From positions 32,001 to 96,000 of the forward strand of contig JAYZQJ010000033.1 of assembly GCA_036149055.1 (NCBI GenBank): a stretch of DNA of 64,000 nucleotides, given 5' to 3'. Of the stretch, positions 32,370 to 57,474 are shown one piece after another. Numbering within the stretch: position 1 is the first letter of the stretch; every line of letters starts with the position of its first letter. The notes under the pieces were generated by a model. That model was not told the origin of the DNA and ran no database searches. It worked only from the letters and a program-made list of their open reading frames with translations. The position numbers and the translations under genes are program-made. This DNA comes from Myxococcota bacterium. Lineage in GTDB: Bacteria; Myxococcota_A; Polyangia; Polyangiales; Sandaracinaceae.

Positions 32370-35300
32370 TCACTCGATGATGAAGAAGAGCTCCTCGGCC
32401 TTGTCGGCGTCGAGCTTCTTCAGCGCCTCGTACTGCGCGCGCGCGGCGGCGCCCTGGCCGAGGTTCGCGTAGCAGACGCCGAGGCCGTAGCGCAGGCCCG
32501 GGTCGTCGGGCGCGCTGAGCAGCGCCTGCTGGTAGGGCTCCACCGCCTCCTGGAAGCGGTGGAGCTCGATCAGGTTGTCGGCCAGGCGGTGCATCGCCTC
32601 GCTGTGGTCGGGGTCGACCTCGCCGATGCGTGTGTAGGCTCGCACGGCGTCTTCACGGCGATCGAGGCGCTCGAAGAGCTTGCCGAAGCTCATCAGCGTG
32701 TCGACGTCGCCGAGGCCGAGCTCCATCGCCTCGGCGCAGGCGGCGGCCGCGTCCTCCTTGCGGCCGACCTTGAGGTAGCCGAAGCCGAGGGCCGCCTTGA
32801 GGCTCGGGTCGTGCGGCGCGTTCTTGCAGGCGCCCTCCCAGGCCGCGATGGCCTCCTCGCCCCGGCCGAGGCGCATGAGCGAGGCGCCGAGCGCGTACTG
32901 CGCGGTGGCGTGGGTCGGATCCATGCGGAGCGCCCGAGACAGGGCCGCGGCGCTCTCGTCGAAGCGCTCGAGCCGCTGGAGCACCGCGCCCATGCGGAAG
33001 TAGCCCTCCGCGCTCTGGACCTCGCGCACGAGCGCGTTGAGCGCCTTCAGCGCCTCGTCGAGCTTGCCGGCCCGCTCGTAGGCGCTGGCGCGCGCGAGCT
33101 CCAGCCGCGCCGAGCCGCCGGACGCCGCCGCCGCCTCGAGCACGGAGATGGCCTCCTCGCCCTTGCCGGCCGCGGTGAGGGCCTCGCCGAGCGCGAGCAA
33201 CACCGCGGGGTCGTCCCCGTCGAGCTCCCGGGCGCGCTCGAGGCTCTTCAGCGCCTCGGCGGGCGCGGACTCCACGAGCAGCTCGCCGAGGGCCCGGTGG
33301 GCGAGCGCGCTCTCTTCGTCGAGCCGCACCGCCCGGCGCGCCGCGTCGAGCGCCCGATCGGGCTGACCGTCGTCGCGGTAGCACCACGCGAGCTGCACCC
33401 AGTCGTCGGCGTGATGACCGCCGAGCGACGCCGCCTGCCGGAGCGCCTCGAGCGCCTCCTGCACCCGGCCCGCCTCGCGGTGGAGCCGCCCGAGGAGCGC
33501 CTGCGCCTCGCGCGAGCTGGCGTCGGCCTCCGCGGCCGCCTTCGCCTCGGCGTAGGCCTTGTCCGCCTCGCCCGCGTCCGCGAACGCGCGCGCCAGCGCC
33601 ACCCGCACGCCGGCGTCCTCGGGGCGCCGATCGCGCGCCTCCACCAGCGCGTCGAGCAGATCGAAGCCGCGGTCGGCGTGACGGCAGGCCTCGGCGAGCT
33701 CCGCGGCGATCGGCGCCGGCGCCTCGGCCACGTGCATCGCCTGCTTGAGCGCGTCGACCGCCGCGTCCCAGCGACCGGCCGCGCCGAGGGCCCGCGCGAG
33801 CCGGCGCTGGATGTCCGCGTCGTCGGGCCGGAGAGACGCGGCGCGCTCGAGCGGCGCGACCGCCTCCTCCGGCGCGCTGCGATCCTCCCGCGCCTTCGCC
33901 AGGCCGAGCAGCACCTCCACGTCGTCGGAGAGCGCGGCGAGCTTGCCGTAGTGCGCCTCGGCCTCGCTCGGCATGCCCAGCGCGAGGTAGACCCGCGCCG
34001 CGTGCTCGTGCGCGTCCGCGCGGGTCGGGTCCAGCTCCGCCGCCTTGGCGTACTGCTGAACCGCCTGCTTGGAGCGCTTCTCCGCCTCCAGCACCTGCCC
34101 GAAGCCGACCAGGTAACGTGCGTCCTCGGGGCGCGCCGTGACCGCCGCCTCGCTCTCCTCCCGCGCCTTCGCCACGTCGCCGAGGGCGAGCATGGTCACG
34201 CCGAGGTAGTAGCGGGCCTCGGGGTCGTCGGGCGCCCGGTGCCGGGCGGCGTTGAGCCAGTCGCGGGCCTCGGAGTAGCGCGCGAGGCGACAGAGCGAGG
34301 CGCCCATGCCGACGGCGACCGGGCCGTCCTGCACGCCGAGGTTCACGGTCTTCGACAGCGCGTCGAGCGCCTCCTGCCAGCGCTCGGCGGCCAGCAGCGC
34401 GAGGCCGTGCGCGCGGTGCGAGGCCGCGTCCTGCGGGGCGAGCGTCGCCGCCTCGGCGAGGGCCTTCACCGCCTCGTCCACCCGGTCCATCGAGAGGGCG
34501 AGCTCCCCGAGCGCGCGGTGGAACCACGCCACCTTGGGCTTCAGCTCGGCGGCGCGGCGGAGCTCCTGGAGCGCCTCGTCCTTCCGGTCCACCGCGGCGA
34601 GCGCCTCGCCGTAGCCGGCGTGCCCGGCCGCGTCCTGGGGCGCCTTGGAGAGCGCCGCCTCGAAGACGCCGATCGCCGCGGCGTGCTTGCCGAGCGCGTT
34701 GAGCGCGCGCCCGACCTCGAACGCGGTGTCCGCGTCGTCCGGCCGGAGCTGCAGCGCCTTGCCGAACGCCTTGGCCGCGTCCGCGTGCTGCCCGGCGGCC
34801 GCGTGGGCCTTGCCGAGCCCGCGCTGCGCGTCGAAGTCCTCGGGCGACTCGGACGCCGCCTCGCCGAACACGCTCGCCGCGCCGGTCACGTCACCGGAGG
34901 CGAGCAGGAGGTCTCCGAGCTTCACCTTGCCGGGCGCGCCCGGGGCGAGCTCGACCGCGCTCCGCTGCGCCGCGATGGCGTCGTCCATCCGGCCGATCGC
35001 CGCCAGCTTGGCCGCCACCTGCTCCTGCATCGCGGCGTCCCCGGGCGCGGCCGCGCGCGCCTTGGCCAGCGCCGCCGCCGCGTCGTCCACCCGGCCCTCG
35101 CGGGCGCAGGCGTCGGCGAGCGCGAGCAGCGTGTCGACGCCGCCCTCTCCGACCTCGCTCGCCTTCGCCAGCGCGCGCGCGGCGTCGGCGTCGCGCCCGA
35201 GCGCCTGGTAGCTGCGCCCGAGGGCGGCCCAGGCCGCGCCGTCGTCGGACCGGGCGCGGACGGCCACCTCGAGCGCCGCCGCCGCCGGCTCGTGCCGGCC

Positions 35301-38300
35301 GAGGCGCGCGAGCGCGTGGCCGTACGACCGCTGGGCCTCGCCGTGATCGGGCCGCAGCCCCACCGCGGCCCGCAAGGCCTCCTCCGCCCCGGCGTCCTCG
35401 TTCCGCGCGGCGCGCACCTGGCCGAGGCCGAGCCACGCCTCGAAGCCGGTCGCGTCCGCCGCGGCCGAGGCCGCGAACGCCGCCTCCGCCGCGCCGAGGT
35501 CACCGAGCGCGCGCCGCGCGCGCCCCAGCCCGAGCTGGCTCTCCGCGTCCGGCGCGATCCGGACGGCGCGCTGGTAGGCCTCGGCCGAGGCCTCCCACCG
35601 GCCGGCCGCCGCGCACGCCGCCCCGAGCCGCGCCGCGATCCGAGGATCGTCGGGCGAGAGGGTCGCCGCCTGCGCGAGGGGCGCCGCCGCGTCCGCCGGC
35701 CGCTCCAGGCGCTCGAGCACCCCGGCGAGCGAGAGCTGCGTCGTGAGGTCCTCTTGCGCCATCGCGGCCGCCTGCTCGAGCGGCGAGAGCGCCTCGGCGT
35801 CGCGGCCCAGCTTGCCGTAGAGCCGGCCGAGCGAGACGAGGGCCTCCGCCCAGCCGGGGGCGAGCTCCACCGCCTTGCGGTAAGAGGCGATGGCCGCGTC
35901 GGGCTGACCGAGCTTGGCCTGCGCGTCGCCGAGCGCGTGATGCGCGTCGGCGGAGCCGGGCAGCAGGGTGACGGCGCGGGAGAGCGCCCGCAGGGCCGCG
36001 TCGGCCTGCTTCTTCGCGAGGAGCGTGCGGCCGTAGCCGAACAGCACGTCGCCGTCCATCGCGGCGTCGACCCCGCCCTCGAGCTGCACCGCCCGCTCGT
36101 AGCAAGCGAGGGCGCGATCGAGCTCGCCGCGCCGCTCCTGCACGTCGGCGAGCGCCGCGAAGAGCGCGCGGTCCTCGGCGTGATCGGCGGCCGCCGCCTC
36201 GAGCGCCTCGGCGGCCTCGTCGTCCCGGAAGTCCTCGGCGAGCAGCACGCCGAGCCCGCGGCGGGCCTTCTCCCAGCCGAGCCCGATCGCCTTGCGGTAG
36301 GCCTCCTCCGCGGCGGTGGGCGCCCCGTTCGCGTGGCGGGCGTCGCCGAGCGCGGCCCAGCCCTCCCCGCTCGACGGCAGCGCGGTCACCGCGCGCTCGA
36401 GGGCGGCCACCGCGTCGCCCGGGCGCTCGTCCCCCAGGTACGCCATGCCGAGGTGCAGGCGCGCCTCGGGCTGGTCCGGGTAGAGCGCGAGGCTCGCCTC
36501 GAGGTGCGTCACCGCCGCCTCGAAGCCGCCGCGACGGAGCTCCGCGGCCCCGAGCGCGCTCTTGACGCCCGCGTCGCCCGGGGCGCCCTCGTGCGCGGTG
36601 GTGAGCGCGGCGACCGCCTCGTCGTGCCGGCCGAGCCGGCTCAGGACGCGGCCGAGCTTGGCGTGCGCGCCTTCGGGCGTCTCGCCGCTGGCGTCGATCG
36701 CGGACTGGTAGGCCGCGGCCGCCTCGCCGGTCCGCCCGAGGGCCGCGAGCGCGTCGCCCTTCCCGACCAGCGCGGTCGCGTGCGCGCCGTCGAGGCGGAG
36801 CGAGTCGTCGAAGGCGGCGATCGCGCGATCGACCTGACCGGCGGCGAGCCGCGCGCGCCCCACGTCGGCCCAGCCTCGCGCCTCCTCGAGCCCGAGCGAC
36901 GCGGCCCGCTCGAGCGCCTCGAGCGCGGCCTCGGGCGCGCCCGTGGCCAGGAGCGCCGCGCCGAGCCGCGCGTTCGCCATCGCGTCGCCGGGCGCCAGCG
37001 CCACCGCGCGCTTCAGCGGATCGACCGCCGCCTCCTCGAACCCGAGCGAGAGGCGAAGATCCCCGAGGGCCGCCTGCCCTTCGGCGTCGTCGGGATCGAG
37101 CGCGAGCGCGCGGCTCCAGGCGTCGACCGCCTCGTCGTCCGCGCCGATCGCGCGCTTGGCCCGAGCCAGCTCCACCCAGGCGCCGCGGAGCTGCGGGGCG
37201 AGCTCGGTGGCCTTCTCGAAGCTGGCGCGCGCGTCGTCTGCGAGCCCGCGCGCCTTCTGGGCCCGACCGAGCCGGGCGTGGAGCGCGCCGTCGTCCTCCG
37301 CCAGCCCGACCGCGCTCCGGTAGCTCGCCTCCGCGTCCGCCGGACGCTCGGCCGTCATCCAGAGGTCGCCGAGCTCCGCGTGGAGCGCGGCGTCGTCCGG
37401 CCGGAGCCCGATCGCCTTCTTCAGCGCGTCGGCCGCCCGGGCCTGGTCGCCGAGCCCGCCGCGCGCCCGCCCGAGCGCGAGCCACGCGTCGGCGTCCTCG
37501 GCCTCGCGCTGGGTCACGCGCTCGAACGCCATCACCGCGAGCTCGTGCTGCCCGCTCTCGGACGCGCTCCGCCCGAGGGCCCGCTGCGCGTCGAGGCGGT
37601 CGGGCTCTCGATCGGTGGCGCGCTTCAAGGCGGCGACCGCGTCGGCGTGCCGGCCTCGCTCGGCGAGCGCGCGCCCGTAGGCGATCCACGCCTCGACGTC
37701 GAGCGGCGCGAGCTCGGTGGCCTTCTCGAGCGCCGGCAGCGCTCGCTCCACCCGCCCGAGCGCGAGCAGCGTCGCCCCGAGCTGGCTCTGCAGCGCCGCG
37801 TCGTCCGGCTTGGCCTCGACCGCCTTCTCGAGCGGCTCCACCGCGTCGGCGTCGCGATCGAGCGCCGAGTACGCCGCGCCGAGGCCGCCGAGGGCCTCGA
37901 CGTCCTGGGCCGCGCGCGCGAGCACCGCCCGCCACGCCTCGACCGCCTCCTCCTGGGCGCCCGCCTTCACCGCCGCGCGGGCGTGCTGACGGTGCGCGTC
38001 GAGCCGATCCGGGTCGAGCTTCGCCGCGCGCCGGTAGGCCTCGCGCGCCTCGTCCCACTTCTGGGCGTCGGTGTGGGCGCGGCCGAGGGCCATGAGCGCG
38101 TCGGGGTCGTCGGCGCTCAGCTGCGACAACGCCGAGAGCACCTCGGCCTCGTCGCTCGGCCGCTCGAGGCGCTTGAAGAGATCGGCGAGCGATCGCAAGA
38201 CGCCTTCGTTCTGCGGGTCGACCTCGCGGGCCTTGCGGTAGGCGCGCACCGCCTTCTCGAGCTCGCCGCCCGCCTCGTAGAGGGCGGCGAGGCTCTGGTG

Positions 38301-41300
38301 CGGCGCGGCGGACGCGCCGTCGAGCTGGGCGCTCTTCTCGAGCGCGGCCAGCGCCTCGTCGTTCATCTTCAGCGCCGCGCAGCTCTGCCCGAGCAGGAGC
38401 TGAGCCTCGGCGACGTCGGGCGCGATGCGCGTGCTCTGCCGCAAGGACTGGCGCGCCTCCTCCCACTTCTCCTGACCCGCCTCCGCCCGGCCGCGGCCGA
38501 GGTAGAGGCTCGCGTCGTCGGGCTCCACCTCGAGCGCCGCCGCGTACGCCCGCTCCGCGCCGCCGAGCTTGCCGAGCGCGAAGAGCACCGCGCCGTGGGC
38601 CGCGTGGACCTCCGCCCGCTCCGGCAGCAAGGAAACCGCCTTCGCCAGCGCGAGCTCGGCCTCCTCGTCCTGCTCGAGGGCGCGGTGCGCGAGGCCGAGC
38701 GCGTGCCAGCTCTCGCCCCGGCCCTCGTCGATCTCGACCGCCCGCGCGAAGGCCTTCACCGCCGCGCCGCGCTTGTCGAGCTTCGCCGCCGCGACGCCGA
38801 GCGCGTGGTGGGCGTCCGCCGATCGCGGATCGAAGCCCACGCTGTGATCGAGGGCGTCGTAGCTCCGCTCCCACCGCCCGGCCGCCGCCGCGGCGACGCC
38901 GAGCCGGCAGAGCAGCGCGGCGTCCTGAGGCGCGAGCTCCACCGCCTTCTCGAGCTCGTCGGCCGCCTCCTCGTCGCGACCGAGGTCGCGGAGCACCGCG
39001 GCGAGCGCCGCGTGCAGCTCGGGCTCCGGGGGCAGCGCCTCGATGGCGTCGCGGTAGGTGTCGACCGCCTGCTCCTTCTTGCCGAGCCGCGCGCGCACCT
39101 CGGCGAGGGCGCGCTTGGCCCGCCCCCGCCCCGGCTCCGCGCCGAGCGCCTGGTCGTAGGCCCGCTCCGCCTCGGGGAGCGCGTCGAGCCGGGAGAGCGC
39201 GAGGCCCAGGCTCTCCCACACCTCGGCGTTGCCGGGCGAGAGCGCCGCGCACTTCTCGAGCGCGTCGCGCGCCCGCTCCCACTGCTCGGCGCGCACGTAG
39301 CCGAGGCCGAGATCGATCAGCAGCTGGGTGCTGTCCCCGCCGCCGAGCTCCACCGCCTTCGCGTAGGCGTCCGCGCTCTCCTCGTGCCGACCGAGCTTCT
39401 GGAGCACGCCGCCCTGGCCCGACCACAGAGTCGACTCCTCGGGGTGCGCCTCGAGCGCCTGGGCGTAGACCTTCGACGCCTCCTCCCAGCGCTCGAGCTC
39501 CGCGAGCAGCGCCGCGCGAGGGCCGAGCCACTCGGTGCGCGCGGGCGCGAGCCGGCTCGCCTCCTCGTAGGCCGCGATCGCCTCCTCGCGCTCCTCCGCC
39601 TTCGCCGCCGCCTCGCCGCGCAGCGCGTGCGCCTCCGCCTCCTCGGGCAGGCGCTCCACCGCCGCCCGCAGCGCCTCGAGGCCCTCGCCGCCGCTCCGCA
39701 GCTGCGCCTTGCCGAGCGCGAGGCGCAGGGCGCCGTCGTCGGGGCGCGCCTTCACCGCGGCGGTGAGCGGGGGCACCGCGTCGCCCCACTTCTCGAGCTT
39801 CACCCGCACCTGCCCGAGCAGCGCCTTCAGCGACGCGTCCTCCGGGTCGAGCTCCACCGCCTTGGTCAGCCGCTCCTCGGCGACCTTCAGCTCGCCCTTC
39901 TCCTCGTGCAGCCGACCGCTCAGCGCGAAGCCCTCGGCCCACGACGAGTCGATCTCGAGCGCGCTGGTCAGGTGATCCTTCGCGGCGTCGAGGTCCTTCA
40001 GCTCGAGGCACGCCTTGCCGAGCCACTTGAACGCCTCGCCGATGTCGGGGCGGATCTTCACCGCCCGGGTGAGCGACTTGCGCGCGTCGTCCCACGCCGC
40101 CGTCCGAGCGAGGCTCACGCCGAGCCGGGTCAGGCTCTTCGGGTCCTCTTCGTCGAGCTTCACCGCGCGCTGCCACGCCTCGGCCGCCTCCGCGTGCTTG
40201 CCGAGGCGCTCGAGCAAGGCGCCGTGCGTGCGGTGCACCTCCACCGCGTCGGGCTTCCGCTCGGCCGCGCGCCCGTAGGCTCGCGCCGCGTCCTCCCACT
40301 TCTCGAGCTTCTCGCTGAGCTGCCCCGCCTCGAGGAAGCCCTCGACGAACTCGGGGTCGTGCTCGGCCGCCTTGAGGTAGGCGCCGATCGCCTCGCGGTC
40401 GTCCTCCAGCGCCCGGCATCCCTCCGCGAGCTCCTTGTAGGCGCGGGCCCGGACCAGCGGCTCCGGCTGGGCGCCGCCCTCGTCCCAGGTCCGCAGCGCC
40501 TTCTCGGCCGCCTGCTGCGCCTGCTGCCAGCGCTCGACCGCGTTGTAGGCGATGGCGAGCTGGAGCGCGGCCTGCGCGTCCTCGGGCGCGACCTTCACCG
40601 CCTTCTGCAGGATCGGCACCGCCTCGTCCGAGCGCTCCTGCCGGTTGAGCGACGTGCCGCGGATCACGAGCATCTCCGCGTTCTCGTCCTCGGCGCGCAG
40701 CACCGCGATCGCCGCCTTCTCGGCGTCGGCCCAGCGCTCGGCCTCGAAGTAGAGCCGCGCGAGCGCGGTCCACGCCTCGGTGTTGCCGTCGTCGAGCGCG
40801 ACGACCTTCTCGTAGCTCTTCACGACCTCGTCGGTCTTGCCGAGCTTCGCGCGCACCTGGGCGAGGGCCTCCTGCGTCTCGAAGTGCTCCGGGCGCATCT
40901 CGGCCGCGGTGACGAAGGACTTCTCCGCCGGCTCGTGCTGGCCGAGCGCGACCTGCGTCTGGCCGAGGAGGAAGAAGACGTCCGGGTCGTCCCGGAGCAG
41001 GGTCGAGGCCTTCTCGAGCCGCTCGAGCGCCTCCTCGTTCTTCTCCAGCCGCCGCAGGCAGCGGCCGAGCTTGAAGTAGATGCCGCCGTCGTCGGGGAGG
41101 AAGCGCAGCGCGATCTTGTAGGAGTTGTGCGCCTCCTGATCCTGGCCGACGTGCTCGTAGACGCCGCCGATGGCGATGTATCCGTCGAGGAAGTCCGGGT
41201 CGAGATCGAGCGCGCGCCGATAGGCCTCGATGGCGCGATCGTCCTCTCCGAGGTGTTTGCACGCCTCGCCGAGGAGCTTGTGCCCCTCGACGTGATCCTT

Positions 41301-41891
41301 CTCGGCGGCGACCAGCGCCTGGAGCACGCGGCCCGCGTCCTCCCACTTCTCGAAGCGCACGTAGGCGCGGCCGAGCGGGAGGAGCAGCGTCGGGTCGTTC
41401 GGCTCGAGCTTCAGCGCGCGCTCCAGGCACGCGATCGCGAGCTCCCACTTCTCGGCCTCGACGCAGGTCTCGCCGCCCTTGCGCGGCGCGTCGGCGTGCT
41501 CGGGCGGATCGGCCTCCGCCTCGAGCTGGCTCACCGCGTGGTAGGCGTCGGCGGCGGTGCTCACGTCGCCGACCTTCACCGCGACCTCGCCCAGCACGTA
41601 CTGGCAGTCGGCGTGCTCGGGCTTGATGGCCGCCGCCTCCTTCAGCGGGGCGACCGCCTCCTCGGTCTGTCCGTCCTCGAGGTAGGCGCGCCCGAGCCCG
41701 TACCGGCAGCCGAAGTGGTCGGCCTTCGAGCGGCGCGCGCTCTCGTACTCCTTGATGGCTCTGTCGAGCTCCCCGAGCTTGTGATACGCGGCCGCGAGCT
41801 GGTAGCGCTTCCGCGTGTCCTTGGGGTTCACGAGCAGACCCTGCTTGTACAGGGTCACCATCTCTCTGAGCTTCTCGGGGTCGTCCGACAT
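32370..41891 (-). CDS. Giant tetratricopeptide-repeat protein (~3173 aa)
   Basis: Continuous ~34-aa periodicity (AxxxLGxxxxxxGxxxxAxxxYxxAxxLxP) from MSDDPEKL to the C-terminus. No signal peptide or other domain recognised. Confidence 0.93.
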   Translation of the reverse strand: MSDDPEKLREMVTLYKQGLLVNPKDTRKRYQLAAAYHKLGELDRAIKEYESARRSKADHFGCRYGLGRAYLEDGQTEEAVAPLKEAAAIKPEHADCQYVLGEVAVKVGDVSTAADAYHAVSQLEAEADPPEHADAPRKGGETCVEAEKWELAIACLERALKLEPNDPTLLLPLGRAYVRFEKWEDAGRVLQALVAAEKDHVEGHKLLGEACKHLGEDDRAIEAYRRALDLDPDFLDGYIAIGGVYEHVGQDQEAHNSYKIALRFLPDDGGIYFKLGRCLRRLEKNEEALERLEKASTLLRDDPDVFFLLGQTQVALGQHEPAEKSFVTAAEMRPEHFETQEALAQVRAKLGKTDEVVKSYEKVVALDDGNTEAWTALARLYFEAERWADAEKAAIAVLRAEDENAEMLVIRGTSLNRQERSDEAVPILQKAVKVAPEDAQAALQLAIAYNAVERWQQAQQAAEKALRTWDEGGAQPEPLVRARAYKELAEGCRALEDDREAIGAYLKAAEHDPEFVEGFLEAGQLSEKLEKWEDAARAYGRAAERKPDAVEVHRTHGALLERLGKHAEAAEAWQRAVKLDEEDPKSLTRLGVSLARTAAWDDARKSLTRAVKIRPDIGEAFKWLGKACLELKDLDAAKDHLTSALEIDSSWAEGFALSGRLHEEKGELKVAEERLTKAVELDPEDASLKALLGQVRVKLEKWGDAVPPLTAAVKARPDDGALRLALGKAQLRSGGEGLEALRAAVERLPEEAEAHALRGEAAAKAEEREEAIAAYEEASRLAPARTEWLGPRAALLAELERWEEASKVYAQALEAHPEESTLWSGQGGVLQKLGRHEESADAYAKAVELGGGDSTQLLIDLGLGYVRAEQWERARDALEKCAALSPGNAEVWESLGLALSRLDALPEAERAYDQALGAEPGRGRAKRALAEVRARLGKKEQAVDTYRDAIEALPPEPELHAALAAVLRDLGRDEEAADELEKAVELAPQDAALLCRLGVAAAAAGRWERSYDALDHSVGFDPRSADAHHALGVAAAKLDKRGAAVKAFARAVEIDEGRGESWHALGLAHRALEQDEEAELALAKAVSLLPERAEVHAAHGAVLFALGKLGGAERAYAAALEVEPDDASLYLGRGRAEAGQEKWEEARQSLRQSTRIAPDVAEAQLLLGQSCAALKMNDEALAALEKSAQLDGASAAPHQSLAALYEAGGELEKAVRAYRKAREVDPQNEGVLRSLADLFKRLERPSDEAEVLSALSQLSADDPDALMALGRAHTDAQKWDEAREAYRRAAKLDPDRLDAHRQHARAAVKAGAQEEAVEAWRAVLARAAQDVEALGGLGAAYSALDRDADAVEPLEKAVEAKPDDAALQSQLGATLLALGRVERALPALEKATELAPLDVEAWIAYGRALAERGRHADAVAALKRATDREPDRLDAQRALGRSASESGQHELAVMAFERVTQREAEDADAWLALGRARGGLGDQARAADALKKAIGLRPDDAALHAELGDLWMTAERPADAEASYRSAVGLAEDDGALHARLGRAQKARGLADDARASFEKATELAPQLRGAWVELARAKRAIGADDEAVDAWSRALALDPDDAEGQAALGDLRLSLGFEEAAVDPLKRAVALAPGDAMANARLGAALLATGAPEAALEALERAASLGLEEARGWADVGRARLAAGQVDRAIAAFDDSLRLDGAHATALVGKGDALAALGRTGEAAAAYQSAIDASGETPEGAHAKLGRVLSRLGRHDEAVAALTTAHEGAPGDAGVKSALGAAELRRGGFEAAVTHLEASLALYPDQPEARLHLGMAYLGDERPGDAVAALERAVTALPSSGEGWAALGDARHANGAPTAAEEAYRKAIGLGWEKARRGLGVLLAEDFRDDEAAEALEAAAADHAEDRALFAALADVQERRGELDRALACYERAVQLEGGVDAAMDGDVLFGYGRTLLAKKQADAALRALSRAVTLLPGSADAHHALGDAQAKLGQPDAAIASYRKAVELAPGWAEALVSLGRLYGKLGRDAEALSPLEQAAAMAQEDLTTQLSLAGVLERLERPADAAAPLAQAATLSPDDPRIAARLGAACAAAGRWEASAEAYQRAVRIAPDAESQLGLGRARRALGDLGAAEAAFAASAAADATGFEAWLGLGQVRAARNEDAGAEEALRAAVGLRPDHGEAQRSYGHALARLGRHEPAAAALEVAVRARSDDGAAWAALGRSYQALGRDADAARALAKASEVGEGGVDTLLALADACAREGRVDDAAAALAKARAAAPGDAAMQEQVAAKLAAIGRMDDAIAAQRSAVELAPGAPGKVKLGDLLLASGDVTGAASVFGEAASESPEDFDAQRGLGKAHAAAGQHADAAKAFGKALQLRPDDADTAFEVGRALNALGKHAAAIGVFEAALSKAPQDAAGHAGYGEALAAVDRKDEALQELRRAAELKPKVAWFHRALGELALSMDRVDEAVKALAEAATLAPQDAASHRAHGLALLAAERWQEALDALSKTVNLGVQDGPVAVGMGASLCRLARYSEARDWLNAARHRAPDDPEARYYLGVTMLALGDVAKAREESEAAVTARPEDARYLVGFGQVLEAEKRSKQAVQQYAKAAELDPTRADAHEHAARVYLALGMPSEAEAHYGKLAALSDDVEVLLGLAKAREDRSAPEEAVAPLERAASLRPDDADIQRRLARALGAAGRWDAAVDALKQAMHVAEAPAPIAAELAEACRHADRGFDLLDALVEARDRRPEDAGVRVALARAFADAGEADKAYAEAKAAAEADASSREAQALLGRLHREAGRVQEALEALRQAASLGGHHADDWVQLAWCYRDDGQPDRALDAARRAVRLDEESALAHRALGELLVESAPAEALKSLERARELDGDDPAVLLALGEALTAAGKGEEAISVLEAAAASGGSARLELARASAYERAGKLDEALKALNALVREVQSAEGYFRMGAVLQRLERFDESAAALSRALRMDPTHATAQYALGASLMRLGRGEEAIAAWEGACKNAPHDPSLKAALGFGYLKVGRKEDAAAACAEAMELGLGDVDTLMSFGKLFERLDRREDAVRAYTRIGEVDPDHSEAMHRLADNLIELHRFQEAVEPYQQALLSAPDDPGLRYGLGVCYANLGQGAAARAQYEALKKLDADKAEELFFIIE

Positions 41892-42066
41892 GAGGGAGGG
41901 CGACGATACCGAAGCGGGCTGCGCGATTGAAGAGCGGATCGCGGCCCCGTAACCCGAGTTGCGCGGCGCTCCCGACGCCGCCCGCGGCGATACCCTCGTT
42001 TGGGGATGTAGCCCTCGAGAAGAGGGCGAGAGGAAACCAGGTCGCGCGGCGCGCGATGAGCCGGCC

Positions 42067-42318
42067 ATGCCTGCTCGACGCCCGCGCTACGCGCCCCGCG
42101 ATCGCTACCGGACCCGCCCCTCGGCGCGCGAGGTCCCGGCCCTGCACGACCTGGCCGCGACGGCCCTCGATCGGCCGCTGGTGGATCTCCCCGCGGCGCG
42201 GAGACGCGAGCGGGCCCGGACGCGCTGCCTGCCCTCTCTCGTGCCCCTCGTGCTGGTGGTGCTCGGCCGCTCGCTGACCCTCGGCTCGGTCGTCGGCGCG
42301 ACCCTGGCGTGCCTGTGA
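42067..42318 (+). CDS. Small hypothetical protein with C-terminal hydrophobic segment
   Basis: Fills the gap between the TPR and PLD genes. Ends LVPLVLVVLG...VVGATLACL. Confidence 0.35.
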   Translation: MPARRPRYAPRDRYRTRPSAREVPALHDLAATALDRPLVDLPAARRRERARTRCLPSLVPLVLVVLGRSLTLGSVVGATLACL

Positions 42319-45882: not shown

Positions 45883-46064
45883 AAGGACTCCTTGACGCCG
45901 TGGGGCCGGCCCTGGTGTATTTCCGCGGCCGGGAAAAACCTGGCGACGGATAGAATGCACGCTCCGGCGCGCCGTCTCATCCGCACCTTTCGAAGGCTCT
46001 CGTCGTGGGGGGACGAGCGACATCGGGCTCTCCTTCCACGATCGCACTGATCCCTGGAGGCGTC

Positions 46065-46934
46065 GTGAGCTCACCCCCGATTCGAATCTCCCACCTCGCG
46101 GCGGGCCTGGCGGCCGTCCTGGCCATCGCGCTCGCCGCTCCCACGCAGGCCCAGATCGGCCCGGCGCGCCGCATCACCGGCGCCCCCGTCGCCAACGAGG
46201 CCGTGCGCGCCCGGTTCGCCTGGGGCGGCACCGGCAACCGCATCATCTGGGTCAACCAGGCCGACGAGGTCTACTACCAGCGCGTGCACTCCAACCGCGT
46301 CGACCGCCACATCCGCATGCGCGGACACACGGTCGGGGTCCGCGGCGATCAGACCGAGTACGTGATCCCGTGGGACAACAACACGATCCTCGTCGTGACC
46401 CAGCGCGGCAGCCTCTACCGGCACCAGATCCGGAACGAGAGCGTCGGGCCGCCCGAGCAGATCCAGGGCGCCCCGGTCGGCACCCAGGGCCAGGACCCGG
46501 TCTTCATGTTCCGGGTCGCCAACCGGCTGATCAACGTCACCCAGCAGGGTGAGGTCTGGGCCCACCAGGTCGGCAACGTGGTCTCCCCGCCGCAGCGCCT
46601 CGGCCGCGTGGCCATCGCCTCGCCGCGCCAGGTGCGCCACGTGTTCAACGTCGGCCGCGCGGTCTACATCGTCAGCGACCAGGGCGAGGTCTACCGCCAC
46701 GACGTGCACCCGGACTTCGGTCAGGGTCGGCTCGTGCAGACCCGCGCCAACTGGTTCGCGCAGCCCAACACCCGGTTCGCGTTCGTGATGAACAACGGCC
46801 TGTACGTGGTGGGTCCCCAGGGCGAGCTCTGGGTCCACGACGTCAGCCGGCTGATGCAGAACCGCCGCGGGGTCCGCGGTCAGCGCGCGGCGCCGCAGCC
46901 CGCGCAGCCCGCGCAGCCGCCCACCGGGGGTTGA
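46065..46934 (+). CDS. Secreted repeat protein, probable beta-propeller (tachylectin-like)
   Basis: GGAGG RBS before GTG, signal peptide, and five repeats (NQADEVYYQ, TQRGSLYRH, TQQGEVWAH, SDQGEVYRH, GPQGELWVH). Confidence 0.7.
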   Translation: MSSPPIRISHLAAGLAAVLAIALAAPTQAQIGPARRITGAPVANEAVRARFAWGGTGNRIIWVNQADEVYYQRVHSNRVDRHIRMRGHTVGVRGDQTEYVIPWDNNTILVVTQRGSLYRHQIRNESVGPPEQIQGAPVGTQGQDPVFMFRVANRLINVTQQGEVWAHQVGNVVSPPQRLGRVAIASPRQVRHVFNVGRAVYIVSDQGEVYRHDVHPDFGQGRLVQTRANWFAQPNTRFAFVMNNGLYVVGPQGELWVHDVSRLMQNRRGVRGQRAAPQPAQPAQPPTGG

Positions 46935-47242: not shown

Positions 47243-47662
47243 TCAGCGCCGCTGCGCCTCGAAGAGACGGTAGGCGAGCATGCCGAGCGCCATGGTGCCG
47301 ACGAAGACGGCCGCCTCCGCGCCGAATGAGGCCAGCGACGCGATGCCCGGGCCCGGGCAGAAGCCGCCGAGGCCCCAGCCGATCCCGAACAGCGCGCTGC
47401 CGCCGAGGAGCGCCGGCGTGAGGTCCTTGCGGGTGGGCACCTCGAAGCGACCTCCGAAGACGGGGGTGCCCCGCTTCAGGATGAGGCGGAAGAGCACGAA
47501 GTGGACGCCGATCGCGCCGACCATGACGAACGCGAGGCTGGGATCCCACTGGCCGAAGAAGTCGAGGAACCCGACGACCTTGGACGGCTGGGTCATGCCC
47601 GCGATGGCGAGGCCGACGGCGAAGATCAGACCGGCGACGAACGCGGCGAGGGGCTTCTTCAC
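47243..47662 (-). CDS. YeeE/YedE-family sulfur-compound transporter subunit (PmpA/DUF6691-like)
   Basis: GMTQPSKVVGFLDFFGQWDPSLAFVM...LFGIGWGLGGFCPGP. Confidence 0.9.
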   Translation of the reverse strand: MKKPLAAFVAGLIFAVGLAIAGMTQPSKVVGFLDFFGQWDPSLAFVMVGAIGVHFVLFRLILKRGTPVFGGRFEVPTRKDLTPALLGGSALFGIGWGLGGFCPGPGIASLASFGAEAAVFVGTMALGMLAYRLFEAQRR

Positions 47663-48105
47663 GACACGCCTCCGAGCAGCCGCACCGCGAGCACGGTCAG
47701 GGCGCCGGTCGCGATGAAGGTCACGGTGGCCACGATCGAGCGGCGGGAGAAGCGGCTGATGCCGCAGACCCCGTGGCCGCTGGTGCACCCGCTGCCGAGC
47801 CGCACACCGAAGCCGACGACGAGGCCGGCGACGGCGATGGTGAGCAGCGACCGGTCGTAGGTGACGGCGAAGAGCTGGGGCTGCAGCGCGAACATCACCG
47901 CGCCGCCCACCACCAGGCCGCCGACGAAGGCGGCCCGCCAGCCGAGCTCCTGCGCGTCGGCGCGGTCGGCCGGCCGGGGGAGGAGCAGGCCGGAGAAGAT
48001 GCCGCTGATGCCGGCGATGCGGCCGTTGAAGAGGAGGAGCAGCGACGCGCTGATCCCGATGAGGACGCCTCCGAGCGTGGAGGCGAGGGGGGTGAAGTGT
48101 TCCAT
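47659..48105 (-). CDS. YeeE/YedE-family sulfur-compound transporter subunit (PmpB-like)
   Basis: GGVLIG...NGRIAGISGI...RLGSGCTSGHGVCGISRFSRRSIVAT. Confidence 0.92.
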   Translation of the reverse strand: MEHFTPLASTLGGVLIGISASLLLLFNGRIAGISGIFSGLLLPRPADRADAQELGWRAAFVGGLVVGGAVMFALQPQLFAVTYDRSLLTIAVAGLVVGFGVRLGSGCTSGHGVCGISRFSRRSIVATVTFIATGALTVLAVRLLGGVS

Positions 48106-48310
48106 GAGGGTGGCTCCGAGAACGGCGAACGGGCCGGGTCTTTGCTGATCTCTCGAGTCGGGATGCGCTCGACGCAACCCGTGGTCACCACACCACCAGG
48201 AAGCGTACCAACGTCGGCGCGCACCGCCCACGCGAGCCTCTGCAACGCGGCGAAACGAGCGGTGCAACGGCGAGATACGGATCGCCCGGCCGACGCCCCA
48301 CGGCGAGGGC

Positions 48311-48326
48311 TGGCGCGGTTCTCGCT
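48311..48326 (+). promoter_or_regulatory. Candidate sigma54 promoter of the rhodanese-CA gene
   Basis: TGGCGCGGTTCTCGCT gives GG-N10-GC. A TGCAACG direct repeat lies upstream at 48241 and 48263. Confidence 0.45.
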
Positions 48327-48340
48327 GACCGCGGTCGGCC

Positions 48341-49711
48341 ATGACCCGCTCGCTGCCCCTCGCCCTCCTGCTCGTCGCCTGCCAGGCGCCCTCCCCGGCC
48401 CCGCGCGCGTGCTCGCCGGACGGTCCCCCCGCGCGCTTCGACCGCTCGCCGGGCGGCGTGCCCGAGGTGGCTCCGTCCTGGGTGCTCGCCCACCACTGCC
48501 AGGTGCGCCTGGTCGACGTGCGTTCGGAAGAGGAGCTGACGGGCCCGCTCGGCCGCATCCCCTGGGCCAGGCACGTCCCGCTCGACCGGCTCGAGGACGA
48601 GGCGGAGGCCTGGGACCGGGACGCCCCGGTGGTCCTGGTGTGTCGCTCGGGGCGGCGGTCGGCGCGGGCCACCCGCGCGCTCGAGGACCTGGGCTTCGGC
48701 GCGGTGGCGTCGATGACCGGCGGCATGCTCGCCTGGCGCGACGGCGACCGGCCGGTGGTGCGGCACCGCGCCTCGCCCGCCCCTCCCCCGCCGGCGGAGC
48801 CGCACGCGGGGCCGCTCCGCGCGGTCGACATCGAGGCCCACCTGGGCGACCCGCGCCGGATCCGATGGGTCAAGGTCGCGGCGCTCCTGATGCAAGGCAC
48901 GCAGTCTTGCGTGGACGGACGCGATCCGAGGCCGGTGCTCGGCACGCCGGGCGGAGACGCCGGCGAGATCCTGCTCTCGCTCGCCGCGGCGGAGCGGGTG
49001 CGCGGCGCGCCCTTCCCCGCCTCGCGGGTCGGCCCCTTCCTGGACGCGTACCTCGACGCCTTCGGGCGCGTCTACGTGCACACCGACACCCACGCGCTCG
49101 AGGCGCTGGAGGCCTCGCTCCGGGACGACCCGCGCTTCGCCCCCGCGCTCGCCCGCGGCGTCGAGCGCCTGGTGCGGCGCCCGCCGCGCGCCCTCGAGGG
49201 GCCGCTGCTCGACGCGCTGACCCGCCCGGCCCACGTGGGCTGCGGCCACCTGCGCCTGATGCGCGAGCACCCGGACGAGTACGGCGTGCGCCCGGCGCTG
49301 AGCGAGGCGGTGCTGCGCGCGATCTTCGTGCGGCTCTGGCGCGGCGACGCGATCGACTTCGTGGTGCTCGAGGGCGGCCACGCCGAAGGCGCGGTGCTCG
49401 ACGTGGTGCTCGATGGGGAAGTGCACAGCTACACGCGTGTGCCGATGATCGCGCCGCACCTCGGAGACCGAGAGCTGTTCGTGCACCACCCCCAGGTCAG
49501 CGCCTGGCTGCGCGAGCAGAACGCGAGCTTCGTGTTCGAGCACGATCCCGCGCTCCGCGCCGAGCCCGGGCGCAGGGAGGCGCTCCACGCGGAGCTCGAG
49601 CGGCTCGGCGCGGCCCAGCTCCAGGCCACCCTCTCGCACCTCGCCGCGGACCTCCCGCGCTACCGAGCCCACGTCTCCGAGCGGCGGGTGTCGATCGAGG
49701 CGGCGCGATGA
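48341..49711 (+). CDS. Lipoprotein: rhodanese domain fused to a zeta/beta-type carbonic-anhydrase-like domain
   Basis: Lipobox LVAC. Rhodanese LVDVR...VLVCRSGRRS...GGMLAW. Then CVDGR...PGG...VHTD...GCGH...EGGHAEGAV. Confidence 0.75.
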   Translation: MTRSLPLALLLVACQAPSPAPRACSPDGPPARFDRSPGGVPEVAPSWVLAHHCQVRLVDVRSEEELTGPLGRIPWARHVPLDRLEDEAEAWDRDAPVVLVCRSGRRSARATRALEDLGFGAVASMTGGMLAWRDGDRPVVRHRASPAPPPPAEPHAGPLRAVDIEAHLGDPRRIRWVKVAALLMQGTQSCVDGRDPRPVLGTPGGDAGEILLSLAAAERVRGAPFPASRVGPFLDAYLDAFGRVYVHTDTHALEALEASLRDDPRFAPALARGVERLVRRPPRALEGPLLDALTRPAHVGCGHLRLMREHPDEYGVRPALSEAVLRAIFVRLWRGDAIDFVVLEGGHAEGAVLDVVLDGEVHSYTRVPMIAPHLGDRELFVHHPQVSAWLREQNASFVFEHDPALRAEPGRREALHAELERLGAAQLQATLSHLAADLPRYRAHVSERRVSIEAAR

Positions 49712-50889
49712 GGCGGCTCGCGCTGATCACGCTGCTGCTCTGGCCCGCGCCCGCGGCGGCGGACTGGCCGGACGCGATCGGCCCCTTCACGGTCGGGGAC
49801 GATGCGGCCTCGCTGCGGCTCTCGGGCATGGCGCAGCTCCAGCTCGACGTCGAGCGCCCGGGCGAGCCCGCGCTGCGGGTCCGGCGGCTGCGGCCGATCG
49901 CCCGGGCGAGCTTCGCCGGCGGCCTCCTCGGCGCGACCGCGCACCTCGAGCTCGCGCCGGGCCAGGCCGAGCTGATCGACCTCTTCGTCGAGGCGCGGCT
50001 GGATCCGGCCCTCCACCTCCGGGCCGGGCAGCTCAAGGTGCCGTACACGGTGTACCGGCAGCAGTCGCCCACCCGCCTCGCCCTCGTCGACTGGCCGGTC
50101 ACGAGCCGCTGGTTCGGGGCCGAGCGGCAGCTGGGTGTGACGGCGACGGGGGCGCTGGGCCCGGTGGGCTACGCCTTCGGCGCGTTCGCGGGCGAGAACC
50201 GACGGGCGGCGCACGCGCGCGAGCTGCCGGCCTTCTACGGCGAGGACGCGACGAACCCCTCGCGCCTGAGCGACCTGGGCGCCCCGGAGTCTCCGCACCT
50301 GGAGCTCTTCGCCCGGCTCGAGCACGCCCACCCGGACCTCGACCCGACCTCGCAGATGGACGCCCGGGGCGGCGAGCTGCGTCACCTCGTGGCGGCGAGC
50401 GTGGCCTGGGACACCGCGCCGACGGCGCGCCGCGATCTGCTGCTGCGCGTCGCGCCCGAGCTGTGGGTGCAGGCGCACGGGCTGAGCCTCACGCTCGTGG
50501 GTCACCTCGCGCTCTTCGAGGACGCGACCGGCGCGCCCCGGCCGGCGGGCATGGGCGCGCTCGCCGAGCTCGGCTGGCACGCGCACCGTCACGTGGAGCT
50601 GACGCTGCGGGTGGCCCGGGTGGACCTGACGGCCGCGCTCCGGGGAGACGCGGCCCGGCACGCCGCCCGCCTCGAGCCGCGCGACGCCGACGCGCACGCG
50701 GCCTGGGAGGCGCAGTACGGCGACGCCGGCACCCTGCGCGCGACCCAGGAGGTGGCGCTCGGCGTGAACGTGCTCGTGATCGGCCGCAGCCTCGCGTGGC
50801 GCTCCGACGTCGCGTGGCTCCGCGTCGAGCGGACCGACGGCGCCCGCGACGCGCTCCGCTTCCGCACCCAGCTCAGCCTGGCGTTCTGA
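49708..50889 (+). CDS. Outer-membrane porin (OprO/OprP anion-porin-like)
   Basis: Signal peptide, VRRLRP...LIDLFVE...LRAGQLKVPY...ERQLGV, C-terminal FRTQLSLAF. ATGA-coupled to the upstream gene. Confidence 0.75.
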   Translation: MRRLALITLLLWPAPAAADWPDAIGPFTVGDDAASLRLSGMAQLQLDVERPGEPALRVRRLRPIARASFAGGLLGATAHLELAPGQAELIDLFVEARLDPALHLRAGQLKVPYTVYRQQSPTRLALVDWPVTSRWFGAERQLGVTATGALGPVGYAFGAFAGENRRAAHARELPAFYGEDATNPSRLSDLGAPESPHLELFARLEHAHPDLDPTSQMDARGGELRHLVAASVAWDTAPTARRDLLLRVAPELWVQAHGLSLTLVGHLALFEDATGAPRPAGMGALAELGWHAHRHVELTLRVARVDLTAALRGDAARHAARLEPRDADAHAAWEAQYGDAGTLRATQEVALGVNVLVIGRSLAWRSDVAWLRVERTDGARDALRFRTQLSLAF

Positions 50890-50966: not shown

Positions 50967-52655
50967 CTGGAGGACGGTCATGTCGACTCGCTTCACCCGC
51001 TGGATCCCCGCCCTCTCCTGGCTGCGCGACTACGAGCTCCGCCGCGACCTCCCGGGGGACCTCTCCGCCGGGCTCACGGTGGCGGTGATGCTGATCCCGC
51101 AGGGCATGGCCTACGCGATGCTGGCCGGCCTGCCGCCGGTGGTGGGGCTCTACGCGTCGGTGGTCCCGCTGCTGGTCTACGCGTTCCTCGGCACGAGCCG
51201 GCAGCTCGCGGTCGGCCCGGTCGCGATGGTCTCGCTCCTGGTGGCGACCGGCGTCGGCGCGATCGCGGAGCTGGGCTCGGCCGCGTACGTGGCCCTCGCG
51301 GTGGTGCTCGCCGGCATGGTCGGCGTCATCCAGCTCGCGATGGGTCTGCTCCGGCTGGGCAAGCTCGTCACCCTGCTCAGCCACCCGGTGATCAGCGGCT
51401 TCACCTCGGCGGCCGCGATCATCATCGGGCTCAGCCAGCTGAAGCACCTGCTGGGCGCGCCCATCCCCCGCAGCGCGCGCCTCCACGAGCTGCTGGCGAG
51501 CGCCGCGCAGGCCCTGCCGGAGACGAGCCTCGTCACCCTCGGCATCGGCGCGGCGTCGATCGCGATCCTGCTCGGCCTCAAGCGATGGGCGCCGCGGTTC
51601 CCGGGCGCGCTGACGGTGGTCGGGCTCGGCACGCTGGCGACCTGGGGCCTCGGCCTGCACGAGGCGGGGGTCGCGATCGTCGGCGAGGTGCCCGCCGGGC
51701 TCCCGCGTCCCGGGCTGCCGTCCTTCGACCTCGAGCAGATCTCCGCGCTCCTGCCGACCGCGCTGGTGATCTCGCTGGTCGGCTTCATGGAGTCCATCAG
51801 CGTCGCCAAGGCCTTCGCCCGGAAGCACCGCTACGAGGTCGACGCGAGCCAGGAGCTCACCGCGCTGGGCCTCGCGAACGTGGCCGGCACCCTCTTCGGC
51901 GCCTACCCGGTGACGGGCGGCTTCAGCCGCACCGCGGTCAACGGGCAGGCGGGCGCGCGCACCGGGCTGGCGAGCGCGATCACCGCGGTGGTCATCGGCG
52001 TCGCCCTGCTCTTCTTCACGCCGCTCTTCCACTTCCTGCCGAACGCGGTGCTCGCGGCGATCGTGATGACGGCGGTGTTCGGGCTCGTCGACCTGAAGGA
52101 GGCCCGGCACCTCTGGCACGTGAAGCGCACCGACGCGGGGCTGCTCGCGCTCACCTTCGCGGTCACGCTCTTCGTCGGCATCGAGGAGGGCATCGGCGCC
52201 GGCGTGCTCGGCTCGCTCGCGCTCTTCGTGCACCGGAGCACCCGCCCTCACCACGCCATCCTCGGGCGGCTCCCGGGCACCACGAGCTACCGGAACGTCA
52301 CCCGCTTCCCCGAGGCCGAGCGTGTGCCCGGGGTCACGATCTGGCGCTTCGACGCGAGCTTCTACTTCGCCAACGCGGACTACTTCCGCGACCAGGTCGA
52401 CCGCCTGCTGCTCGGCGGCGGCGCGCGCGCGCTGGTGCTCGACGCGAGCGGCATCAACGACCTCGACGCCAGCGCGGTCACGACCCTCGAGGAGGTGCAC
52501 GCGCGCCTCGACGCGGCCGGCGTGCAGCTCTTCGTGGCCCACGCCAAGGGCCCGGTGCGCGACGTCCTGGAGCGCGGCGGCTTCACCGCGCGCCTCGGGG
52601 CGGACCGCTTCTACCTGGATCTGCACGAGGCGGTGACGGCGGCGGCCGCCGCGCC

Positions 52656-57356
<4,701 letters not shown>

Positions 57357-57474
57357 GTCCTCCCCAAGAACGGAACTACCATGGGTCTGGGAAACCGGGT
57401 GCGCCACGCTGCCATTTCAGGTGCGCACGACCCGGTTCTTCGCCGGAAAATCGCCGTCGCGGCCAGCCGTGGAC

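Follow-up and report, generated by a model that had tools for sequence, protein, structure and literature searches.

A rhodanese joined to a zeta carbonic anhydrase-like fold in a predicted lipoprotein of the Myxococcota, and its association with sulfur handling

What use might a bacterium have for a lipoprotein that joins a rhodanese to a fold known from a diatom carbonic anhydrase (CA)? The question is raised by a gene at positions 48341..49711 (+) of a 64,000-nucleotide stretch of Myxococcota DNA (the window, meaning the whole stretch that was analysed). The gene is a single open ORF of 456 aa, here called P0001, which holds a lipoprotein signal, a rhodanese and a domain of the zeta-CA fold. 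Its GC per codon position is 0.82/0.53/0.95, it is single-copy in its own genome (9.9 Mb, 96%-complete), and its nearest named relatives come from the Sandaracinaceae and other Myxococcota. An initial annotation had read it as an exported enzyme that couples sulfur transfer to the hydrolysis of CO2, COS or CS2, and all the motif codons that it listed were confirmed.

The protein begins with a predicted type II signal peptide that ends in the lipobox LVA-Cys14 (48341..48382, +; Cys14 codon at 48380), at a position identical in a same-genus relative (L101). These calls were made with our own motif-level heuristic, which looks for n- and h-regions and a lipobox Cys. By this heuristic a lipobox is found in 75/97 proteins of the exported type to which P0001 belongs (type A, see below) vs 3/75 of type B, and those three are A-like. 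A further pair of cysteines, Cys24 and Cys53 (48410..48499, +), likely forms a disulfide typical of the exported type; both are kept in 41/44 scorable type-A lipoproteins. The motif and the family pattern support the lipoprotein export that had been proposed, and P0001 is predicted to face the periplasm.

The rhodanese domain, about residues 36-143 (48446..48769, +), is of the type found in PDO fusions, and it gives the sole Pfam match on the protein (residues 52-133). It has the rhodanese fold, a PF00581 score above cut-off and a catalytic Cys101 heading a CRxGxR-type loop. This loop reads CRSGRRS (48641..48661, +; Cys101 codon 48641) and is intact, as had been claimed. Across 97 type-A proteins the same CRSGRRS loop occurs 77 times, other Cys loops occur 8 times, and in 12 proteins an Asp replaces the Cys; the PDO-fused rhodaneses of P0001's own genome carry CRSGGRS and CRSGRRS. 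The entire rhodanese is missing from several members nested in the type-A clade (L008, L035, P0048, P0079 and P0126).

The remainder of the protein, residues 160-456 (48818..49708, +), is uncatalogued, with no matches in Pfam, NCBIfam or the PDB sequences. Its predicted model has the single-chain fold of CDCA1, to which the match is distant (17% identity, rmsd 3.5, Foldseek E 0.02); the structure search put forward as a check on the zeta fold thus bore it out. No sequence match to PF18484 or the CDCA1 chains was found, and the domain is therefore filed as a sister family that would work like a zeta-CA. The beta-CA family PF00484 was found neither in P0001 nor in its own genome, and the His-to-Cys spacing of 54 residues differs from the short HxxC ligand spacing of beta-CAs.

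In the R3 repeat of CDCA1 the metal ligands are Cys473, His525 and Cys535, with the metal water hydrogen-bonded by Asp475 and Gly536, and the CO2 pocket consists of Val474, Phe537, Phe603, Thr627 and Leu631 (described in PMC8217695). The P0001 counterparts of the metal-site residues are Cys190, His247, Cys301, Asp192 and Gly302, and that of the pocket residue Val474 is Val191. The first motif, CVDGR (48908..48922, +), contains predicted ligand 1 (Cys190), the pocket residue Val191 and the Asp192/Arg194 dyad, and maps to Cys473-Val474-Asp475 (PMC8217695). Predicted ligand 2 is His247, which together with Asp249 lies in HTD (49079..49087, +) and maps to His525 by order. Predicted ligand 3 lies in G-Cys301-G-His303 (49238..49249, +; Cys301 codon 49241), opposite Cys535-Gly536-Phe537, and the spacing between ligands 2 and 3 is 54 residues vs 10 in CDCA1. 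The Cys/His/Cys ligand order and the Asp/Arg dyad of zeta-CA are thus both present in the sequence. P0001 also has a PGG motif at residues 203-205 and an H347-x-E349 motif within EGGHAEGAV; the initial annotation gives the corresponding CDCA1 letters as ‘PGG’, ‘HGD’ and ‘HxE’. For the CO2 pocket, V191, F380, T430 and L434 were mapped by order or end register, and Phe537 is replaced by His303. The inferred equivalents of Phe603, Thr627 and Leu631 lie at 49478..49642 (+), where Phe380 is assigned by residue order, and Thr430 and Leu434 assume an ungapped alignment with residue 445 set against chain residue 642 as the end register.

This site is extremely well conserved. Among 273 aligned domains (101 type A, 70 type B, 83 standalone and 19 eukaryote-type repeats, 4 of them from one record), C190, D192, H247, D249, G300 and C301 are present in 273/273, and R194 and H303 in 272/273; since a C-x-D-G-[RH] motif served to choose the domains, the C190 and D192 counts are in part a product of selection. 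In an unselected alignment (A2), C190, D192, R194, H247, D249, C301, H303, H347 and E349 are invariant in 120/120, and H347, E349 and H383 are near-invariant family-wide. No active-site position separates type A from type B among the 273 domains; the 8 positions that do differ all lie outside the site, 4 of them in indel regions. With His303 in place of Phe537 and the near-invariant H347, E349 and H383, the site would be more polar than that of CDCA1, and CA-type folds are in general promiscuous toward X=C=Y substrates. The domain might then hydrate some other heterocumulene, for example isothiocyanic acid/thiocyanate, which rhodanese makes from cyanide, or its metal might bind HS- or polysulfide as a sink or sensor. 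We consider such other chemistry quite improbable, given that His303 is also found in members from algae, protists and Saccharibacteria that lack a sulfur context, and that no cyanide or thiocyanate genes recur in the part of the neighbouring ORFs that was scanned (134 ORFs).

The family to which this domain belongs is large and widely scattered. At E<=1e-3 we found 511 relatives among 8000 scored candidates and, separately, 1493 representatives of 50%-identity clusters, spanning the Myxococcota, Planctomycetota, Saccharibacteria, a glaucophyte alga and other protists. Members occur in 21/40 genomes of the relatives search (own genome included, one genome left out, one match partial), and phylum-wide in 15/201. 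Four architectures can be told apart. Type A is the exported form, with a lipobox, a mostly intact rhodanese and the Cys24/Cys53 pair. Type B is signal-less and has a degenerate, mostly Ser-led rhodanese loop; a Cys is present in 16/71, mostly within an acidic CxDG loop. Standalone forms of about 300 aa, the Saccharibacteria among them, and eukaryotic forms make up the rest. In a midpoint-rooted FastTree phylogeny of 130 domains, type A forms a single clade (support 0.889) with rhodanese-less lipoproteins nested within it, and type B is a separate clade (support 0.778). The two types co-occur in at least 5 genomes (L003/L041, L016/L047, L034/L046, L078/L053 and L103/L119).

Among the eukaryotes, Lapot gusevi has rhodanese fusions with the zeta-fold domain. 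In Cyanophora paradoxa the zeta-fold domain is repeated in tandem, 2-4 times, in five large proteins (P0122, P0123, P0229, P0270 and P0272); judged from sequence, the three that were fully read carry a signal at the N-terminus and a membrane anchor at the C-terminus. These are candidates for unrecognised glaucophyte surface carbonic anhydrases; a literature search on Cyanophora together with CDCA found nothing. In Planoprotostelium fungivorum (P0273) a signal-like N-terminus and a zeta-fold domain are followed by a fused H+-pyrophosphatase membrane domain. One further protein, P0258, has the reverse order, a zeta-fold domain and then a C-terminal rhodanese with the loop CRTGNRS, which suggests an independent fusion event.

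The neighbours of the gene point towards sulfur. Divergent from it lie a short YeeE/YedE1-type sulfur transporter subunit (47659..48105, -; PF04143, E 2.9e-11) and its YedE2-type partner subunit (DUF6691; 47243..47662, -; PF20398, E 5e-42). Downstream, a porin-like gene (49708..50889, +; PF07396 Porin_O_P, E 0.018, weak and below cut-off) overlaps the P0001 stop with its start (ATGA), which makes it translationally coupled, and is followed by a SulP/SLC26 anion permease with a STAS domain (50980..52767, +; PF00916 and PF01740; TIGR00815 526 bits, over cut-off), whose ORF is open from 50917 with a likely ATG at 50980. Beyond the window, 25 kb downstream of P0001, is a PDO-rhodanese gene (G000:C33:106398-107450). 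Other features were seen close by. Just past yedE is a Pfam-negative ORF of 309 aa (window 46005-46934, +), whose N-terminus is signal-like and which contains short repeats. A 1583-aa CheB-CheR-PAS-histidine kinase-receiver hybrid (window 52656-57407, -) is convergent on sulP, and a 3232-aa ORF (window 32370-42068, -) has, by eye, the appearance of a giant TPR-repeat protein.

The same trend holds across the family. We assigned each locus to a type from its rhodanese loop and its signal, independently of its neighbours (all type-A loci come, by their records, from metagenome-assembled genomes), and searched up to about 7 kb on each side with tblastn; 16 of 100 loci were excluded (6 duplicates, 1 motif-less and 9 standalone, rhodanese-less or truncated). 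Around 31 type-A loci we found PDO 13 times, SQR 5, TauE 8, YeeE/YedE 14 and SulP 7, with at least one of these at 20 loci, porin-like genes at 16 and bestrophin at none. Around 53 type-B loci there were no PDO, SQR, TauE, YeeE or SulP genes and no porin-like genes, and bestrophin occurred at 11 (L015, L025, L029, L036, L038, L044, L049, L056, L062, L063 and L074), mostly directly adjacent and in several sub-lineages, cultured Polyangium included. Of random 15-kb stretches of P0001's own genome, 1.2% contain such sulfur genes and 0.7% a bestrophin gene. The neighbour queries were drawn from the same loci. Type A is one clade, so that the locus counts are non-independent and a Fisher P overstates the contrast. 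The SulP permease may belong to the sulfur cluster independently. Searches of the own genome returned no close SQR relative (one query) and, of the CA kinds looked for (alpha, beta and DAB-type), none; a beta-CA is found in 31/39 relative genomes, the same-genus genome included. Two further observations come from individual loci. Downstream of one type-A gene, at a distance of 1.2 kb, is a divergent beta-CA-like gene whose N-terminus is signal-like (L045:9132-9803; weak NF011765, E 9.5e-5), and a convergent lgt (prolipoprotein diacylglyceryl transferase) adjoins type-A genes on their downstream side at L008 (by Pfam), L012 and L017 (by clustering).

The promoter region tells a similar story. 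Upstream of P0001 is a sigma54-like -24/-12 element (48311..48326, +), kept in three aligned genomes, preceded by phased 11-bp direct repeats of TG[CA]AAC (48241..48268, +) that are likely activator sites and occur also in L101 and L104. Such sigma54 promoters are common in myxobacteria. When scored out of 11 against a sigma54 consensus, with expectations from mononucleotide shuffles, 19/29 type-A upstream regions reach a score of >=9 vs 1.7 expected, and 2/49 type-B regions vs 2.8 expected; the repeat regex matches 8/29 type-A regions. A strict form of the repeat occurs 4 times genome-wide, once in the P0001 promoter and once upstream of an Fe-S/NrfD operon (L124:2903-10241, G000:C2) whose sigma54-like box scores 8; the other two occurrences have no such box. 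This operon encodes a fused 4Fe-4S/NrfD subunit, a PhsA-like molybdoenzyme (below cut-off) and a chaperone, with a downstream sulP match. The PDO-rhodanese gene has a sigma54-like box scoring 9 and a shorter repeat, and is divergent from a sigma54 activator (L123:1899-4416, G000:C33:106398-108915), an arrangement like the FisR layout described in PMC7315123. From these sequence patterns we infer that the P0001 operon, the PDO-rhodanese gene and the Fe-S/NrfD operon share a sulfur regulon. Together, the neighbours at 20/31 type-A loci and the promoter motif common to sulfur genes make the proposed link to sulfur metabolism a strong one.

Could this link be an accident of ancestry? A general periplasmic CA may have gained a PDO-fusion rhodanese and been kept in sulfur clusters by descent, with its two halves functionally unconnected. 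Type A is a single clade, 11/31 of its loci have no sulfur neighbour, and its rhodanese is missing or has its Cys changed to Asp in several members, all of which would fit such a passenger. However, the sulfur linkage survives many rearranged gene orders (gene order is highly variable within type A), and the gene retains its own sigma54-like promoter in 19/29 cases. In addition, the full-length predicted pTM of 0.82 exceeds the 0.63-0.68 estimated, roughly, for freely moving domains, and the model hints that the rhodanese and zeta-fold domains dock onto each other. We regard a passenger fusion as hardly probable.

That type-A genes so often stand among sulfur-detoxification genes suggests that P0001 is an enzyme of CO2/bicarbonate, or possibly one that splits COS, which was likely recruited into bacterial sulfur handling. 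The account that we tentatively prefer, at somewhat less than an even chance, is that the zeta domain chiefly hydrates CO2 to bicarbonate in the service of sulfane-sulfur uptake. A sigma54 activator of FisR-like layout would induce both the P0001 operon and the PDO-rhodanese gene 25 kb away. Thiosulfate or polysulfide would enter via the coupled porin, and Cys101 would accept S(0) as a persulfide, with the release of sulfite and protons. The sulfur would then be passed to the YeeE/YedE pair and imported to glutathione for PDO. Cys190, His247 and Cys301 would bind Zn (perhaps Cd), and the metal-hydroxide, with the Asp192/Arg194 dyad, would interconvert CO2 and HCO3-/H+ close to the SulP permease, so that the domain would act as a zinc carbonic anhydrase and buffer the acid and bicarbonate that move as sulfur is handled. 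Good analogies exist for the sulfur half of this scheme: zero-valent sulfur is brought in to glutathione by YedE1E2, 177/212 carriers of which have pdo (PMC10812762), and an SQR-rhodanese-PDO route has been described (PMC9774590). We favour CO2/bicarbonate because the active site is unchanged across types and because other members sit in contexts such as bestrophin, algal surface repeats and a proton pump. Sulfur handling would, we presume, create its own need for CO2 buffering. Weighing against this account are the distant structural match, His303 for Phe537, the 44-residue insertion between ligands 2 and 3, the presence of SulP in only 7/31 type-A loci and of no sulfur neighbour in 11/31, and the beta-CA already present in 31/39 relative genomes.

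The sulfur context also invites a different substrate. The zeta domain might be chiefly a periplasmic COS/CS2 hydrolase that lets the cell exploit volatile carbon-sulfur gases or render them harmless. H2S would be released, SQR (where present) or abiotic oxidation would yield polysulfide, and the fused rhodanese would capture this and feed YeeE/YedE and PDO. A sulfur substrate accounts for the regulon link, with its promoter motif common to type A and sulfur genes, more simply than pH buffering does. Type A is found inside complete sulfide-oxidation clusters, as the SQR, PDO, TauE and YeeE/YedE counts above attest, and L008 keeps its zeta domain amid yeeE/yedE/pdo despite having no rhodanese. 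CDCA1-R3, unlike a plant beta-CA, hydrolyses CS2 to H2S (PMC8217695). Even the conserved site leaves a substrate switch possible, because the selectivity of CS2 hydrolase is ascribed to its tunnel rather than to the metal site (PMC8217695). Yet this CDCA1 activity is weak: at 1e-5 M and 45 min it gave about half the H2S of a true CS2 hydrolase at 1e-6 M and 5 min (PMC8217695). Furthermore, type A has no active-site changes of its own, the own genome has no close SQR relative by one query, a porin is superfluous for gases, and other family members have CO2/H+ contexts. COS/CS2 as the chief substrate is thus the strong rival, though less probable than CO2; as a side activity of the zeta domain, by analogy with CDCA1, it is likely. 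The boldest claim would be that P0001 is the first periplasmic COS/CS2 hydrolase, rhodanese-docked and in a sigma54 sulfur regulon, that turns volatile carbon-sulfur gases into importable sulfane sulfur in predatory myxobacteria, its family being an overlooked COS sink and a hidden CA class; we think this rather unlikely, though not far-fetched.

Do the two domains work on a common intermediate? The sulfur borne by a rhodanese is S(0), and that set free when COS or CS2 is hydrolysed is S(-II). A direct hand-over between the domains is unlikely for this reason, and because some type-A members have no rhodanese or have lost its Cys; channelling of a shared intermediate is, equally, unlikely. In the preferred CO2/bicarbonate account the two domains would be co-located and co-regulated, with no such intermediate passed. 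Of the original interpretation, then, the fold, the export, the rhodanese loop and the sulfur link are all supported. Tight chemical coupling appears unlikely, given the two oxidation states of sulfur, the members with a Cys-less or absent rhodanese and the lack of any type-A-specific site change.

A fusion of rhodanese and zeta-CA had been put forward as having no characterised example, and our literature search likewise found none; neither the fusion nor its family is described in the freely accessible articles searched. Zeta-CA is listed for diatoms alone in Table 1 of PMC7215798, zeta and like classes are termed highly restricted in a 2026 survey (PMC13098186), and the account of the class in PMC4413181 describes CDCA1 only. 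What is new here is a long-insert His303 sister family, an exported rhodanese fusion, a tie to a sulfur regulon and a matched non-sulfur paralogue. The survey reports many genomes with no detectable CA (PMC13098186). A family of some 1,500 clusters (50% identity) that is invisible to Pfam and NCBIfam may fill part of this gap, and P0001 itself is present in a genome where the alpha- and beta-CA search came up empty. We know of no physiological role for the CS2 activity of CDCA1. The two zeta-fold types, one exported and tied to sulfur, the other cytosolic and tied to bestrophin, occur together in some genomes. On such matched proteins the choice between CO2 and COS/CS2 can be tested directly, with a bearing on microbial COS uptake and on the route by which the zeta fold reached diatoms.

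How does P0001 compare with known systems? The closest in fold is the zeta-class Zn/Cd carbonic anhydrase CDCA1 of Thalassiosira weissflogii (3bob, 3boh, 3uk8, 7bez; PF18484). The zeta domain of P0001 is 16-18% identical to it and longer (about 297 residues vs 210), is present as a single repeat to which a rhodanese and a lipid anchor are joined, belongs to a heterotrophic bacterium, and departs from CDCA1 in His303 and in the ligand spacing given above. The closest structure to its rhodanese is the Burkholderia phytofirmans PDO-rhodanese (5ve3-5ve5; 40-44% identity), a kind of gene that is a frequent type-A neighbour and lies 25 kb off in the own genome; in P0001, by contrast, the rhodanese stands in front of its partner, which has the zeta-CA fold, and export is predicted. 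The Geobacter ExtH-ExtI pair is alike in setting a rhodanese lipoprotein gene beside a phosphate-selective-like (OprO/P-family) porin (PMC5877670; the term ‘lipoprotein’ comes from a reference title in PMC13510729), and the L005 porin matches NF040900 (ExtI) weakly (E 1.3e-5). ExtH as described in PMC5877670 has no CA domain, and the P0001 locus has YeeE/YedE, SulP and PDO as neighbours instead of multiheme cytochromes. The CS2 hydrolase of Acidianus and the COS hydrolases of clade D beta-CA likewise have a Cys/His/Cys metal site, which in P0001 is predicted; theirs is the sulfur-linked chemistry that the COS/CS2 reading would call for. Finally, the descriptions of the FisR pdo-sqr-tauE and BigR yeeE-yedE-pdo operons of Cupriavidus and Acinetobacter in PMC7315123 and PMC10812762 include no CA-fold component; the gene set of these operons is the same as that around type-A loci, and the FisR-type operons share with P0001's surroundings a sigma54-like promoter and an activator divergent from pdo.
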